Source of the DNA: Pseudomonadota bacterium
GTDB lineage: Bacteria; Desulfobacterota; Desulfobacteria; Desulfobacterales; RPRI01
DNA: 64,000 bases
Direction of reading: 5' to 3'
Assembly: GCA_043825875.1 (NCBI GenBank)
Contig: JBDRRF010000079.1
Coordinates: forward strand, 192,001 to 256,000
Position numbers: made by a program. Shown in pieces: positions 39,001 through 48,000 of this stretch. Positions within the stretch are counted from its first letter, which is position 1. The number at the start of each line of letters is the position of its first letter.

Positions 39001-42000
39001 TCCCTACGTTCCATTGCTCAATCGCTGGAAGAAGGGCCGGTGGCAATTTGCGATGTTATGGACGACCCAAGGATTCAATACCCGGAAGAAGCAAAAAAGG
39101 AAGGAATCGCTTCTATTTTGTCGGTTCCGATCATAGTCGGCGGCAATATAATGGGAGCGATGCGTGTTTATACTTCGGAAGCATGGGACTTCACATTGGA
39201 AGATGTTAACTTTGTTCAGGCCTTGGCCGAACTTGCCGGAATGTCAATTAGTATGGCCAAGTATTCAAAAGGATTAAAAAGCAGCATCGAAGTCTTAAAA
39301 ACAATGAGAGAGGTTGAAATTCACAAATCTACAAGAAGAACCCCCTATGAGGGTGTTCCTGTAAGTGTTTCTTCAAAAGAACTCCCTATGCATGCTTAGC
39401 AATCAGAGTTTGAGGTAATAAATGACAATAAACACCAGGGGCATCTAATCACGTTTTTTTGAGAATTTATTTAGTCAACAGGTGCCCCTTATTTATTGTT
39501 AATAGCAAGACTACTGTTCTTCAAAGACCCTTCATACTAAACAGCACCACCTTATCTCCAAGTAATTTCACATTAATATACTTCTCATTATTACCCCATT
39601 TACAAGTTTTCGCACCCATGGCACCGGAGCATCTATCAGCTTCACCCAAAATTTCAATTACTTTGTTATAATCCATGCCTAATTCCAAACGGCCATAATT
39701 TTCCGAAGTTAACTTGCTGCACCCAATTGCAAACAAAAAGGATATGGCTAAAATACAAAGCAAAGTTTTTTTTATTATTTTATGTCGCATTTCATCTCCT
39801 AAGAATATAATTTTAAAGTCAAAAATTTATGGGAATATAACAAAAAAACCGGAAATTGGCAAAGTATAAACCAATTTACAATTTTTGCATTGTATTTATA
39901 TGGAGCAGTTTTTCGTACCAAGTTTACTGGGTTTTATCATTATTGACAGTTGAGCACTATAGGTTTATTTTATTAGATATTGTATTTTGAACATAATCAT
40001 GTCCTATCCAATTACATTTCAAAACCAGCTGAGTCGTTTAATATTTAAATGAAACAAAAGGGATAATAATAATGCAGCAGTTAAACGAATATATCTCAGT
40101 ATCTCCTGAACTGTTTGAGAAAATAGTAATTTCTCTTGTTGTTCTGATTGTTTTTAGCATAGGCAGAATCGTCTTGAATCTTGTTGTAAAAAGAAAATTT
40201 ACGGATGCAAGGCGGGCATACCATTATCGCCGTTTTATCTTATACACATATACCATTCTTTTGGTGCTGATTATAGGACGAATATGGGTAAAAGGAATAG
40301 ATTCAATAACGACTTTTTTAGGTTTAGCAACAGCCGGTATCGCAATAGCTATGCATGATACCATTGCGAATCTTGCCGGATGGCTTTTTATCATCTGGCG
40401 TAAACCTTTTTCCGTTGGGGATCGTATTGAAATTGGCGGTGTAGCAGGCGATGTTATTGATATCAGAATTTTTCAGTTCAGCCTGATTGAAATCGGGAAC
40501 TGGGTTGATGCTGATCAAAGCACGGGAAGAATTATTCATATCCCAAACAGTAAAGCATTAAGAGAACCTTTGGCTAATTACCAAATCGGATTTGAACATA
40601 TCTGGAATGAAATTCCTGTACTTATAACATTTGAAAGTAATTGGAAAAAGGCGAAGGAAATACTAAATAATATTGTCTTAGACAAAACCATGCACCTTTC
40701 CAAAGGCGCACAGGACCAGATACGAAACGCTGCAAAAAAGTACTTTATATTTTATGACAAGCTTACCCCTATAGTATACACATCAGTCAAAGACAGCGGT
40801 GTTTTACTGACTCTTCGTTATCTTGTTAAGCCTCGTGAAAGAAGAATAACGGAACAGCAAATATGGGAGGCGATTCTGGATGCTTTCGGAAAAGATAAAG
40901 AAATAGATCTGGCATATCCTACTACCAGGTTTTATAGTGATAATAGTGAGTGCCAAAAAGGGTTCAAGGAGTCAAGGATGCAAGGGGGCGAGTGAAAGGC
41001 TTAAAATATAATGAATTAATAGTTTGGCAACAATCCTATCAGTTATGTTTTAACGTTTGTAAAATCAACAAACAACCTCTTGAACCCTTGAACCCTGGAA
41101 CCCTCGAATCCTGGAATCCTGGAATCCTGGAATCCTTTGATAGATTAAAATGCTTCCGTTATAAAAAAGTATCAACTAAATGCATCCCTCACATTTCGCT
41201 CAATTGTCTGAAAAAACTCTGGGCTTAATGCATATGCTAGCACCTCAAATTTCCACATGGTTTCGTCAGAGTTTTCCTTAAGATTAATTTGCGGCTCTTT
41301 TTTAATACTTGCACCTGTTGAAAGCATAATAGCATTTTTTATCAGATTTTTTGCTTCTTCTATCGAAGCTTTCTTTTTTATTTCAATATCAAACCGGTGC
41401 AAAGTTGTCTTGTCCCGTGGCTGAATCTTATAATGGATAGCAGAACTTATTTTGCTATAGGGGATTTTAACAACAGCACCATCCTCTGTTGATAAAATCA
41501 AATTCAGATAACCGGCTTCAACAATTACACCCTCAATTTCATTTAACATGATATGCTGGCCCGGCTGATAATTATCGCCCAACTTGAGCACAAAACCTGC
41601 AATAAAGTCTTTTGCCATAAACCAGCCAAGCCAGATTACTATAACGGCAGTTATGCTTATTACAGCCAAAAAATAATAATCACTGTCTTTTAATGTTATA
41701 TGAAGACCCCAAAATCCAAAAACACTCCATATCAGTATTTCAGCAATCTGGAAAAATTGTTTTGTCCGGTTCTTTTGGATCTTTACTATAATTGTTTTGT
41801 TTATAATTTTTAATGCAAAGGAAAGTAATATCCCAAGCATAATAACTATCAGTAATGATAATCCCGAAAACTCAATATTTAACAACTCATTCATAAGAGA
41901 TCCATTTCTTCTAAACAATTAGTAATTAAAGGTTGAATATAAGGACTAATTTGCATGATCCCCGGACGAATTTCCTTTATAATCCCGCTTCTCTTAAGGG

Positions 42001-45000: not shown

Positions 45001-48000
45001 CCGAATCCTGAGACTCTTTGGCAATAATTTCATTAACGGAACTCCGATCGATATTGTTGTTGATTATTTTTATACCGGCTTCAATTCTGTATTCTTCAAT
45101 TACATTGTTTATGTTTCTATATATTATATCGTTTAATGAAGAATCTTCATTTATAATTAAAATCCTGGCATTTGTGTCTTCCCATTCTTCGGTCATTTTC
45201 AAAAACTTTATCAATGTCAGCCCTAAAGACACCGAATTGCTGCCGCCGCCCCACCAGAGATCTATTGTTTTATGGGAACCAAATCCCTTTTCAAAATGGT
45301 AGTCGAGCAGAAAAATATTATAATCAAGCTTTTTGAAACTTTTAATTACCTGGGCAAATTTTTCGGGCTGCTTGCTGGTTCGTGCCCATCCGAGCATAAC
45401 CGAATTAGGTTCAATACCGGCAAAACCATATACTTTCGTTATGGTTTCCATTCCTTCATAAATATCGTTTACTTCCATGTGCCTTGTAAATATACCGGTA
45501 AATTCGGATTCTTTTTCATCTGATGCCTGCTGGACTTTAGGGGCAATATTTTCAGTTTTCTTGTTTTCTATTAAATTAAAATTGGAAATAATTCCTCTCT
45601 TATGAACAAGCCAGCGCCCAAATTCCAGCAAATGGGGGCGCGCTACCGTTCCACCGCTGAAAAGTATTATATTGGGACGCCAGTTTCTCTGCTGTTTTAC
45701 AGTACGATCAAGATGGTTGAGTCCGTATCTTAAAATAGATGACCAGACACCTTCCCAAGTATCACCTGAATCCAGTGTCAGTTCTTTTTTCTTAAGAAAA
45801 AGAAATATGGAACTCATAATAATAACCGCACCTATCAGAGCTATAAAATCCAGTTCAAGCATTAAGATAAAACATACTACTGCCCCGATAATGCTCACCC
45901 ACCCAGGAATTTTAAAAGAAGGCATAAAATCTGTGCTGGCCCATTTTTCTATGGCACAGCTTAAATTTAAAAAGCCGTATGTGGTGATAAAAAACATTGA
46001 CACTACTCTTGCTATCAGATTCAACTCACCTATGAGAATGCCTGCTTCCGCTATTATAAAAGACAGTATAAGAGCATTTCGCGGGTCATTTGTCTTACCG
46101 TAACCTTTGGCAAAAATACGAGGTGTAATTCCGTCTGATGATGTTGCCTGCAGAATACGGGGCGCTCCTAATATACTGCCTATAGCAGAAGATAATGTTG
46201 CTCCCCAAATGCCAGCTACAAGCAAAGGTGAATAAAATGATATTTCAAGTAAAATATTCGGATTGTTCACCAACTGGTCGGAATTAATCCGGAAAGAAAA
46301 AAATGCGGCAAGACCAATGTAAACTAACAATCCCAAGGCGATTGCGCTTATTGTTCCAATGGGAATGGATTTTTTTGGATCTTTAAGGTCTCCGGACATT
46401 GATACCCCGGCCTCAAAACCTGTTACAGCCGGGAAATAGATAGCAAACAGCATGATAAGTGGAACAGAAGTTGTCACTGGATCAATAAGCGGTTTTACCG
46501 GTGCAAAATCGCCTTTTCCGAAAAGGATAGTAAGAAGGGACAAGACAATCGTAGTCATAATAATATATTGTGTTTTTATTGCCAGAGAAGTACTGATAAT
46601 AACCAAAGTGCCTACAAGGATAATAGCTATAGTTCCGGTCAACCGGATTGTATCTTTAGTAATCGGTAGCCCCCAAAAGCCCAAAAAACTTTCGGAAAAG
46701 CCTATTAAATATAAACTAATACTTAATGACATGCCAAAAAACAGAGCAATACCAAGCGTTCCGCCAATAGATAAGCCCATACTGCGGGAAATTATATAGT
46801 AGGTTCCGCCCGCCTTTACTTTTTTATCGGTTGCTATGGATGAAACACTAAGACCTGTGCAAACTGAAACAATATGTGCCACCAATATAATACCAAGTGT
46901 AAGAACAAATCCGGCCTGTCCTACTATCCAGGGCAGGCGCATATACATAATAACGCCAAGAATAGTTAAAATTGAAGGCGTAAATACTCCGCCGAAAGTT
47001 CCGAGTTTTTTATCCTGTGCCATACTTTACTTACTCATTTCTGATAATTTTTTGGTTAATTATATGGGAAACATAACATACTTTAAATAATTTCACTATC
47101 ATGTCAAACAACTATTAAGACATTATGGATCATAATATCTACGGTTATTTTTTTGACCTGAAAATTATCCATACAGCTAAGCTCATAACCAGCAAAGCAA
47201 TTACATTTAATGTATATGTAAAAAACATATTCCCTGAAAAATAAGGCCAGACCCGTTCTATGGCATATTTTTCTATCTTGTCTTCAATATCAACTGATGC
47301 ATCCACAGGAAGAATCCACTCTGACTCATCATCCTTGTTAATAGTGATTACAATGGCATGATTAAATTGCTTATGTTTATTCTCATGCAGATGTGCTCCG
47401 CCGCCGCCGGTTATGATAAAATTCGTTTGCCCGGTATTTATTCGCGCATACCCGTGGTAGTCACCCGCCAATACATAATCAATTCTCTTTTTTTTAAAAA
47501 GTGAGATCAATTCGTCACTTTTATCAAAAATTTTAGCAGAAAAGACGCTGCTAACCGGAGGAGGGATATGCATAAAAACAAATCGTTTCTTAAATTTTAA
47601 AATATATTCTTCCGGCATTTTATTAAGAAAATCTATACTTTCATGACTGGGATAGGTTCCTCCAAGAATGCGAAGAAAAATAAAAAGACAGTGCTGGTAT
47701 TCAAAGCTAAAAATACTGGGCCCGTAGTCATGCTCAAAACGCGTAATCGGAAAGCTTTTCTCACTAACATCGTGATTTCCCGGCACGTAAAAAACGGGAA
47801 AAGGCATAGCAAACTCATCCGTACATTCCGCCCGGAAATACCGGTGATCATCTTCTGTTGGATTGTCAGCACAGTCACCCAGTAAAACTGCAAAATCTAT
47901 CGGAAGTACCCGCAGCTTTTCCGCCAACCGTTCAAAGGTACCAACACTTCTTGTATCTCCTATCACCGCAAATGAAAAAGACTTTTTGTCAGGCTGCTTT

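Follow-up and report, generated by a model that had tools for sequence, protein, structure and literature searches.

The window, i.e., the whole 64,000-nucleotide stretch of DNA analyzed, carries on its minus strand a gene for a 1710-residue protein built of a cation–chloride cotransporter (CCC), a helical arm, an AAA+ module and a winged helix, followed by a gene for an MscS-like channel protein. The features are as follows:

41891..47023, minus strand: whole fusion gene, CCC transporter, helical arm, AAA+ and winged helix (ORF and translation; 1710 aa, ATG start)
45764..47023, minus strand: SLC12/CCC membrane domain, aa 1-420, LeuT/APC fold (Pfam AA_permease; TIGR00930; KCC/NKCC/NCC structures)
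46187..46192, minus strand: S278-S279, TM8 serine pair of the putative Na+ site ('ATLSSA', identical to the aligned NKCC1 motif)
44864..45763, minus strand: SLC12 cytosolic C-terminal domain, aa 421-720 (KCC4 alignment)
42989..44863, minus strand: helical arm, aa 721-1345 (AF2 model)
42158..42988, minus strand: AAA+ ATPase core and lid, aa 1346-1622 (AF2, Foldseek, VIA)
42743..42769, minus strand: Walker A, GDRHSGKST, aa 1419-1427 (conservation in 258 family modules)
42536..42571, minus strand: Walker B region IIFHDMELWWQR, aa 1485-1496, with D1489, E1491, W1493, W1494 and R1496 (conservation; model strand)
42332..42337, minus strand: R1563-H1564, first lid helix (conservation in 258 family modules: R 256, H 252)
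41894..42157, minus strand: C-terminal winged helix, aa 1623-1710, up to the protein end (family profile, AF2 model)
41172..41894, minus strand: gene of the MscS-like channel protein (PF00924; 240 aa from the ATG at 41894, 248 aa if the TTG at 41918 is used)

The genome-wide survey's note had reported a 1710-residue ORF at this place, and the same minus-strand frame with its ATG start was recovered. An ORF of at least 1600 residues was intact in 63 of 80 related loci; 11 of the remaining 17 were truncated by a contig end and six had an interrupted ORF. The length conservation claimed for the homologues was also found, 29 of the 33 matches to residues 720-1710 being 1646-1749 residues long. The gene is thus confirmed as genuine and conserved, with a helical region and an AAA+/winged-helix module fused to a CCC transporter.

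The AA_permease match described earlier for residues 13-414 was reproduced (2.4e-46), as was that to AA_permease_2, and the NCBIfam model TIGR00930 'K-Cl cotransporter' matched residues 3-557 (5.8e-108) with 362 bits against a cut-off of 953 bits. The membrane domain matched KCC, NKCC and NCC structures at 1e-63 to 1e-75. The best match in the PDB sequence comparison was KCC4 (7d99, 7.3e-75), and since this alignment extended to residue 701, the 1710-residue protein itself contains the SLC12 cytosolic domain. The cytosolic part was detected by tblastn in 72 of the 80 related loci, and PF03522 is precomputed on many homologues. Eukaryotic SLC12 cotransporters are under WNK–SPAK control, and the N-terminal phospho-regulatory tail of SLC12 proteins is absent here. 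The protein shares the 12-TM LeuT-fold domain, the cytosolic domain, the K+/Cl− site residues and the Na+-site serine pair with NKCC1, NCC, KCC1-4 and the archaeal MaCCC, but differs from them by a 990-residue extension (arm, AAA+ and winged helix) and by an almost constant MscS-like neighbor. MaCCC is cited within PMC7200160, and the role of the TM8 serine pair in the Na+ site was taken from the same paper. Both S278 and S279 were invariant across 23 family members, and the segment with 'ATLSSA' matched NKCC1 at 2e-23, NCC at 2e-20 and KCC at 3e-18. Conserved as well were the residues aligned with the K+ and Cl− sites of KCCs (G23-V24-I25, Y75, P198/T201, G202 and Y349), as listed in PMC10518353. 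Judged by sequence, the domain is most likely a Na+-coupled cation–chloride cotransporter of the NKCC/NCC type, with the transported ions predicted accordingly.

The description of the protein as SLC12 plus coiled coils plus AAA+ held for its two ends; the simple coiled coil gave way to two tandem four-helix bundles whose long helices span 40-64 residues, with a small beta insert in each bundle (AF2, 63-row alignment, pLDDT 87.2, pTM 0.82). The arm matched neither a Pfam family nor, at E<=0.001, any structure in Foldseek; its top VIA score (Z = 12.1) was to generic helical bundles. The AAA+ region was modeled with pLDDT 92.1 and pTM 0.86. The AAA_22 match at 1411-1507 noted by the survey was re-found at 6.2e-5 with 23.8 bits, short of the 27-bit cut-off; AAA_14 also matched, at 0.005. 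The best Foldseek matches were ORC2 of A. pernix (1w5t, 6e-10), Cdc6/Orc1, ORC and RuvB, and 1w5t reached a VIA Z of 15.4 over 321 residues, so the Orc1/Cdc6-like fold proposed for this conserved fusion was borne out. Only 1w5t matched across AAA+ base, helical lid and C-terminal winged helix. Identity to the Orc1/Cdc6 proteins was nevertheless 9-13%, there is no replication context, the winged helix of the fused forms is not basic, and the lid motif is GN[IP]GxAL, whereas that of Cdc6 is GDxRxA.

The nucleotide site was compared across 258 family modules. The invariant Gly, Gly-Lys and Arg-His reported earlier correspond to G1419, G1424-K1425 and R1563-H1564, the last pair being invariant even in short forms of merely 20% identity. 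G1424 was Gly in 257 modules; K1425 was Lys in 240 and Arg in 16, and single members have Thr or Asn; ATP hydrolysis may therefore not be universal in the family. The Walker B region, with its strand at model residues 172-176, carries D1489 (240 modules), E1491 (244), W1493 (250), W1494 (252) and R1496 (Arg in 224, Lys in 20). The putative sensor-1 residue N1523 was Asn in 210 modules. An Arg finger was not conserved at the place expected after sensor 1 (position 1534: R 76, K 63), which is a further difference from Orc1/Cdc6. The core also holds a conserved LPFYYxQLF motif (P1372, Y1375, F1379).

Remodeling or loading of oligomers is a common task of AAA+ proteins, and NSF-D2, clamp loaders and TnsC were nearly tied with ORC2 in fold (VIA Z 14.0-14.7). 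The module might accordingly be an assembly or quality-control factor for an MscS-like heptamer or a transporter–channel complex rather than a regulator. We regard this as improbable: pore-loop or substrate-threading features were not identified in the module, the Arg finger is not conserved, ordinary MscS channels assemble unaided, and a permanent fusion to a transporter would be odd for a chaperone.

The winged helix was modeled as helix-strand-helix-helix-hairpin and includes H1650, which is His in 253 of 258 modules. The family profile matched, with the C-terminal 60 residues, the ArsR-type wHTH protein PH1932 (1uly, E 3.8e-4), single members matched MarR_2 or TrmB, and the winged helices of ORC/Cdc6 bind DNA. 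A transcription regulator coupled to transport or tension, membrane-tethered in the fused and soluble in the short forms (cf. MalT and Mlc, which transporters control), could thus be envisaged, and the basic winged helix of the short stand-alone forms (median charge +5) would suit it. However, the medians were +0.5 to +1, i.e., near neutral, in the CCC-fused, CPA-fused and ~1000-residue forms (+1 over the last 72 residues of the CCC-fused ones), the family consensus varies along the putative recognition helix, and translational coupling with a channel gene suggests a protein partner. DNA binding as the role of this domain seems to us a poor prospect.

The survey had also raised an NLR-style immune sensor, which would oligomerize on phage detection and kill by uncontrolled ion flux. 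The NTPase–helical domain–winged helix order with another functional domain at the N-terminus, the 'effector', does resemble STAND NTPases (MalT, Apaf-1/NLR, Avs, nSTAND1/3), which share the conserved winged-helix His. Pfam nSTAND scores were borderline: weak nSTAND3 matches were seen in four of 12 members, and one distant relative reached nSTAND1 with 27.4 bits against a cut-off of 27.1. On the other hand, the protein ends at the winged helix and hence lacks the C-terminal repeat/sensor domain of STAND proteins, and its putative sensor 1 is Asn, whereas that of STAND is Arg. STAND chains were absent among the fold matches listed by Foldseek and VIA, PADLOC gave only a P-loop match (mad8, E 0.004, 14.7 bits) and no defense family, and no defense genes lie nearby. 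The sole broadly conserved neighbor is a housekeeping-type MscS-family channel, and in the sister branches the module is either fused to a CPA2 antiporter or stands by itself next to an MscS gene. The immune reading found no support and is regarded as very improbable.

The partner protein matched PF00924 at 2.8e-7 (31 bits, cut-off 20.2) and has a three-TM layout and the MscS beta-domain, which place it with the MscS-family channels (MscS, MscK, YnaI, bCNG). TM3 of E. coli MscS is rich in Gly/Ala; the CCC-type partners differ in being small (231-264 residues among 36 aligned) and in a TM3 rich in bulky residues. The stop/start overlap claimed for the two genes is real: the ATG at 41894-41892 overlaps the TGA at 41893-41891 as ATGA. 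In 77 of the 80 related CCC-type loci, which belong to Calditrichota, Latescibacterota, Ignavibacteria, Bacteroidota and Myxococcales, the next gene downstream was an MscS-like homologue on the same strand; among the 76 of these 77 loci covered, 24 had a candidate start overlapping the stop by 4 nt and eight had a 1-nt overlap. It was the only broadly conserved neighbor (73 loci versus 21 for the next ORF cluster). Gene adjacency as such need not mean complex formation.

Beyond the CCC fusions, the AAA+/winged-helix module was found at 85 places in 83 of 401 sampled genomes from the phylum of Flexithrix dorotheae, a fraction that is not a prevalence because the sample looks stratified (matches fell mostly on every fourth genome). 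At 81 of these places the module abuts a same-strand MscS-family ORF (E<=2e-14, with a profile built from the partner proteins themselves); two had a weak MscS-like ORF and two a small membrane protein, each followed by a CPA gene. Six places were CCC fusions and six CPA2 fusions (PF00999, TIGR00932). F. dorotheae has a second, stand-alone copy of 1013 residues with an MscS gene downstream of it, and at one metagenome locus an MscS gene (PF00924, 1.3e-19) begins 4 nt after the gene of a 1011-residue helical and AAA+ protein without CCC. Short AAA+/winged-helix proteins (290-450 residues) without a transporter also have an MscS gene next to them at almost every site examined, and NCBIfam MscS models matched their partners. 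The named organisms with stand-alone forms are halophilic Balneolales (Rhodohalobacter, Fodinibius, Cyclonatronum, Balneola, Gracilimonas). The module thus marks a wider, unnamed family nearly always encoded beside an MscS-family channel, and the window gene is its CCC branch. Neither the literature nor the family databases searched yielded a paper or curated family describing it. As stated, 'first transporter coupled to an ORC/STAND ATPase' is too narrow a claim, since the CCC fusion is one branch of this larger MscS-partnered family. No MscS channel is known to us to have an AAA+ partner of its own, and our searches yielded none.

Operons often hold functionally related genes whose products do not interact. 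The AAA+ module might regulate only its own transporter by ATP/ADP sensing like RCK/KTN, with the MscS-like protein a co-expressed but physically independent osmotic valve. There is precedent for nucleotide-binding regulators fused to cation transporters: KefC/KefB (CPA2 with KTN/RCK) and Trk/Ktr with TrkA/KtrA are likewise governed by fused or attached cytosolic nucleotide-binding domains, and a CPA2 domain is also fused in the sister branch of the present family. Their KTN/RCK fold is, however, Rossmann-type, not AAA+/winged-helix, and they have neither an MscS partner nor a long helical arm. The frequent ATGA-type overlaps, and the persistence of the MscS neighbor beside stand-alone and short modules devoid of any transporter, make such independence rather unlikely.

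The conserved MscS-like neighbor instead fits the osmotic/ionic valve suggested by the survey, and we consider it reasonably probable that the fusion and its translationally coupled MscS-like gene form a two-gene unit of ion and turgor homeostasis with the AAA+/winged-helix module as a nucleotide switch. Two rigid four-helix bundles extend the cytosolic tail of the transporter, which ends in the AAA+ and winged-helix domains; the module, presumably hydrolyzing ATP, may contact the channel and, via the arm, the transporter. Such contacts could place salt uptake and solute release under reciprocal control and thereby prevent a futile cycle of import and valve opening. If true, this would be an undescribed coupling of salt uptake to solute release in a bacterial relative of the kidney salt cotransporters. 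The gene was present in just two of 16 other genomes of the window's own genus and is hence accessory.

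The fusion gene proved to be the longest ORF of its region by far and to run directly into the small MscS-like gene:

41891..47023, minus strand: fusion gene, an ORF of 1710 codons with an ATG start
41172..41894, minus strand: MscS-like partner gene, 240 codons from the ATG at 41894-41892, which overlaps the fusion stop TGA at 41893-41891

Pfam placed AA_permease at residues 13-414 of the fusion protein (2.4e-46) and AAA_22 at residues 1411-1507 (6.2e-5), the latter sub-threshold with 23.8 bits against the 27-bit cut-off. The sequence description in the genome-wide survey's note was correct, as the ORF, the two domain matches and the stop/start overlap with the MscS-like gene were all recovered. 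The NCBIfam K-Cl cotransporter model TIGR00930 covered residues 3-557 (5.8e-108), scoring 362 bits, below its equivalog-style cut-off of 953 bits, and 32 structure entries of cation-chloride cotransporters (CCC) matched the protein in the search against PDB sequences (2e-59 to 7e-75). PF03522 is precomputed on many homologues and was not reported on the fusion protein itself in the Pfam scan. Since the KCC4 alignment from the PDB search covers residues 421-701, the SLC12 cytosolic C-terminal domain is present in this protein and not just in its homologues. The transporter part belongs to SLC12. The numbers of promoter-like sites (39 observed, 27.8 expected) and terminator-like sites (6 and 6.1, respectively) were uninformative.

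The ion sites were checked in a 23-sequence full-length alignment, with the site positions taken from the KCC list. PMC10518353 puts the K+ and Cl- coordinating residues of KCCs in TM1, TM3, TM6 and TM10. Residues G23-V24-I25 (TM1), Y75 (TM3), P198, T201 and G202 (TM6) and Y349 (TM10) aligned with the KCC4 site positions, and the putative site residues were invariant or at least 90% conserved; the TM1 Asn of the KCC site is Thr in the fusion protein. Two consecutive serines in TM8 mark the Na+-coupled CCC members according to PMC7200160. TM8 of the fusion protein reads ATLSSA, the same as the NKCC1 motif, and both serines of the pair, S278 and S279, were invariant in the alignment. The TM8 segment scored best with NKCC1 (2e-23), followed by NCC (2e-20) and KCC (3e-18). 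Because the K+/Cl- site residues and the TM8 serine pair are conserved, we take the N-terminal 720 residues to be an intact, probably Na+-coupled chloride cotransporter that may also carry K+. Members of the Microscillaceae type (loci L015, L016, L019 and L023; protein clusters P0057 and P0073) are 1779-1833 aa long because an early loop of their CCC membrane domain carries an insertion of ~90-100 residues.

The search with residues 720-1710 yielded 33 cluster representatives, 29 of them 1646-1749 aa long. When the last 399 residues were run with phmmer against the whole library, 1689 cluster representatives matched at E<=1e-3, 409 of them at E<=1e-30; the 150 matches listed included at least 86 full-length forms of 1600-1850 aa. 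Related loci were scanned in one genome per species with a 12-row alignment as the query, and the best 80 of 261 confirmed loci were analyzed. They came from Calditrichota, Latescibacterota, Ignavibacteria, many Bacteroidota, including the cultured Flexithrix dorotheae DSM 6795, and Myxococcales. The ORF was intact (at least 1600 aa) in 63 of the 80 loci, cut by contig ends in 11 and interrupted in six (L026, L047, L054, L062, L067 and L075). Split forms were also seen: a 986-aa helical plus AAA+ protein that begins at the boundary of the CCC and the arm was represented by 15 members of the P0118 cluster from several sources in Cyclobacteriaceae. For the split and the interrupted forms alike, a true two-gene form, a frameshift or an assembly error is possible. 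The fusion gene is accessory, being patchy both in the window's genus (two of 16 other genomes) and among relatives (five of 31, the window's genome included).

The partner protein matched PF00924 at residues 103-159 with 31 bits against a cut-off of 20.2 bits, and 36 aligned partners shared three hydrophobic segments followed by a conserved RDxIAG helix. By tblastn, 76 of the 80 loci had an MscS-like gene immediately downstream and in the same orientation, and a profile search added L041 (77/80). No MscS-like gene was detectable by tblastn and profile search at the three loci L030, L038 and L079. When the window neighbors were used in tblastn, every other one was found in at most three of the 80 loci, and in the all-against-all comparison of 907 ORFs the MscS-like gene was the only broadly conserved neighbor (73 loci vs. 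21 for the next cluster). The spacing between the two genes at the 76 loci, counted from the start codon nearest to the stop, a choice that favors short distances, was a 4-nt overlap in 24, a 1-nt overlap in eight and 0-70 nt in 36.

The AAA+/winged-helix (WH) module also occurs without the CCC. P0035, a distant relative of 1011 aa, consists of the helical region and AAA+/WH with no transporter. At the metagenomic locus L081, whose protein is 75% identical to P0035, an MscS-family gene follows after 4 nt (378 aa, PF00924 1.3e-19). An ankyrin-repeat protein (L081 12215-12670, plus strand, 151 aa, Ank_2 2.4e-30) is encoded directly after this MscS gene. In addition to the CCC fusion, the F. dorotheae genome encodes a stand-alone copy of 1013 aa, with an MscS gene of 332 aa located 12 nt after it.

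The module profile was then applied to 401 genomes of the F. dorotheae phylum and found in 83 of them, a ratio that is not a prevalence because the draw of genomes appears to be stratified, with most matches on every fourth genome. All 85 places were inspected. An MscS-family ORF abutted or overlapped the ATPase gene on the same strand at 81 of the 85 places (E<=2e-14, with an MscS profile made from the partner proteins themselves), downstream in most and upstream in seven. Loci L164 and L168 carry a weak MscS-like ORF with no Pfam support, followed by a CPA antiporter gene, and at L166 and L167 a membrane protein of 185-187 aa follows the ATPase, then a CPA gene, with overlapping reading frames. 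The latter two operons (L166 3452-9335 and L167 3307-9295), in which no MscS was recognizable, run from an AI-2E-family transporter through the 749-aa AAA+/WH protein and the membrane protein, weakly EI24/CysZ-like in one of them, to the CPA Na+/H+ exchanger. The architectures found were as follows.

Architectures of the AAA+/WH module
CCC fusion: 6 of 85 places
CPA2-type Na+/H+ exchanger fusion (PF00999, TIGR00932): 6 of 85 places, ~1490-1500 aa
Form of 1465 aa, N-terminus unassigned: 1 place
Stand-alone form: many, ~950-1050 aa
Short form, little beyond AAA+ and WH: ~290-450 aa

Among the stand-alone and short forms, the members that carry an organism name come from halophilic Balneolales (Rhodohalobacter, Fodinibius, Cyclonatronum, Balneola and Gracilimonas). 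The short forms retain P1372, Y1375, F1379, R1496, R1563, H1564 and H1650 at 20% overall identity. At L160 a separate CCC-like gene (11628-12887, minus strand), 37% identical to the membrane domain encoded in the window, was noted ~4.5 kb from a stand-alone AAA+/WH and MscS pair, on the opposite strand.

The near-universal MscS adjacency, the frequent overlap of start and stop codons and the fact that cation transporters of two unrelated families were fused to it independently place the module in ion and turgor homeostasis, with the MscS-like protein as its most likely direct partner. We consider it rather unlikely that such pairing reflects co-regulation of the two genes with no physical contact between their products.

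The AlphaFold2 model of residues 1312-1710 (pLDDT 92.1, pTM 0.86) comprised an alpha/beta P-loop core, a helical lid and a winged helix. The best Foldseek match was Aeropyrum pernix ORC2 (6e-10), followed by Cdc6/Orc1, eukaryotic ORC subunits, RuvB and two archaeal AAA+ proteins. VIA aligned ORC2 (1w5t) with Z 15.4 over 321 residues (model residues 59-398). In the same comparison NSF-D2, TnsC and RFC came within ~1 Z unit of ORC2 with the core alone, and only the ORC2-like kind spanned core, lid and WH. At the sequence level, a kinesin P-loop at E 0.24 was the sole match of the single module sequence to PDB sequences. The family profile gave only a wHTH match, PH1932 (1uly), over the last 60 residues (E 3.8e-4), besides compositional rows for the helical part. 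The module fell outside every curated family searched in NCBIfam; its nearest ESM Atlas clusters were all annotated as hypothetical protein, and only a minority of their members bore AAA_22, AAA_16 or AAA.

Conserved positions were counted over 258 family modules, and their roles were named by their place in the predicted secondary structure. The sensor 1 and Arg finger labels on the fusion-protein positions are in part our assumption from general AAA+ anatomy.

Conserved positions of the AAA+/WH module
Walker A: GDRHSGKST from 1419; lysine K1425, K in 240/258 and R in 16/258
Walker B: D1489, 240/258
Walker B +2: E1491, 244/258
No named role: R1496, R in 224/258
Putative sensor 1: N1523, N in 210, T in 12 and S in 10 of 258; end of model strand 207-213
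Expected Arg finger: position 1534, R in 76 and K in 63 of 258
First lid helix: R1563, 256/258
First lid helix: H1564, 252/258
Winged helix: H1650, 253/258

The acidic pair closes a predicted strand and reads D1489-x-E1491 rather than an adjacent DE. The conserved arginines R1496 and R1563 sit elsewhere than the expected Arg finger (box VII) and sensor 2. Replacements of the Walker A lysine, by Arg in the 16 modules and by Thr ('SGTT') in one, were found among P0107, P0057, P0073, P0148 and P0165; they suggest that some lineages bind nucleotide and may not hydrolyze it. An assembly factor built on AAA+/WH was considered as another role for this fold and judged improbable. Only the short forms have a basic WH; in the fused forms its charge is close to neutral. 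The charge comparison did not settle DNA binding. The near-neutral WH of the fused forms speaks against a regulator that binds DNA by its winged helix, and we give that reading only a small chance.

The genome-wide survey's note had read the C-terminal part as both ORC/Cdc6-like and STAND-like. An AAA+ of the ORC/Cdc6 type stood, on fold matches and on the domain order that the module shares with ORC/Cdc6. Membership in STAND was not established, because the protein ends at the WH, the fold matches listed hold no STAND chain (Foldseek ranks 1-50, with gaps, and 50 VIA rows) and the Pfam nSTAND scores are borderline. STAND NTPases reportedly carry a C-terminal sensor or repeat domain (TPR, WD40, LRR, etc.) after the WH (a description attributed to Leipe et al., 2004). 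In the model the last WH helix ends at residue 395 of 399, with no sensor or repeat domain between it and the end of the protein at 1710. The family protein P0001 scored 13.9 bits with nSTAND3 (E 0.045), four of 12 family members matched nSTAND3 below the cut-off, and a distant relative at L163 reached 27.4 bits with nSTAND1 against 27.1.

The further proposal that the protein is an NLR-style immune sensor found no support: besides the lack of a sensor domain, no defense genes neighbor it in the window, and its partner is of a housekeeping type. PADLOC 2.0 assigned no defense family, the sole match being mad8 through the P-loop only (E 0.004, 14.7 bits), and returned nothing for the MscS-like protein. 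An immune role appears most improbable.

No Pfam family was found in the helical arm (residues 721-1345). Its AlphaFold2 model, built with 63 aligned relatives (pLDDT 87.2, pTM 0.82), predicted two bundles in tandem, built of helices of 40-64 residues, with a small beta insert interrupting each bundle. Foldseek with the whole 625-residue model gave no match at E<=0.001, and the best VIA all-against-all hits were generic four-helix bundles with Z up to 12.1, below the ~13 usual for helical bundles; no specific family was indicated by either search. The two halves of the arm had no BLASTP similarity to one another. ClyA-type bundles (Foldseek E 0.09-0.5, TM 0.1-0.2) were dismissed as insignificant, and the apolipoprotein-like PDB rows from the profile search (E 0.005-0.009) as compositional matches to low-complexity helices.

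As the main proposal, and the likelier one, we suggest that the module serves as a nucleotide-dependent switch touching the channel and presumably hydrolyzing ATP. Where it is fused, its action would be relayed by the rigid helical arm and the SLC12 cytosolic domain, and salt import and valve opening might be controlled reciprocally. A bolder reading has the module dock on the cytoplasmic cage of its MscS-type partner, where the nucleotide state would set or override gating and so make an ATP-controlled mechanosensitive valve; in the fused branches the arm would hard-wire this valve to a CCC or CPA2 transporter. We see this bolder reading as possible and well short of probable. The nearest functional design is that of Kef/Trk, in which a nucleotide-binding domain in the cytosol governs a cation transporter; the present family differs in its fold and in its partnership with MscS.

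MscS channels are generally held to act alone, gated by membrane tension. In the present family an ORC/Cdc6-like ATPase is coupled with MscS-family channels at almost all places inspected, and this ATPase has repeatedly been fused to two unrelated classes of cation transporters. The pattern raises a testable proposal, namely that in bacteria ion uptake is linked to the emergency release of solutes under nucleotide control. If the docking and gating reading were true, a mechanosensitive channel would for the first time have an AAA+ partner, and the whole would amount to a self-contained bacterial volume-regulation machine, functionally like the eukaryotic circuit of NKCC and volume-regulated channels. 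To our knowledge, little is known about the regulation of prokaryotic CCC transporters, and this family gives simple bacterial access to the question of how regulatory signals are relayed from the SLC12 cytosolic domain to the transport domain. In our literature search, made mostly outside subscription journals, neither a fusion of CCC with AAA+ nor a pairing of MscS with AAA+ was described. Because the family is present in cultured organisms that are not pathogens, it is open to genetics, flux assays and cryo-EM: F. dorotheae DSM 6795 has both a CCC-fused and a stand-alone pair, and Rhodohalobacter, Fodinibius, Cyclonatronum and Gracilimonas have stand-alone forms.

Several other genes surround the pair in the window:

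36439-37740, minus strand: calcineurin-like metallophosphoesterase fused to TPR repeats
38776-39399, plus strand: stand-alone GAF-domain protein, 207 aa (GAF_2 8.9e-16), just past the second MscS gene
40072-40995, plus strand: second MscS-family gene, 307 aa (PF00924 1.7e-14), ordinary-looking
47145-48182, minus strand: upstream calcineurin-like metallophosphoesterase, 345 aa, with apparent hydrophobic segments at both ends
48582-50457, minus strand: upstream MacB-type pair, an ABC ATPase (PF00005 1.3e-33) and an FtsX/MacB_PCD permease

In the 80 related loci the GAF-domain gene was not found, and neither of the metallophosphoesterases, which lie on both flanks here, was kept beside the fusion. 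The second MscS gene is convergent to the partner gene, and the locus thus holds two MscS paralogues within 2 kb. Beyond the MacB-type pair lie a polyprenyl-synthetase-like gene and a methyltransferase.
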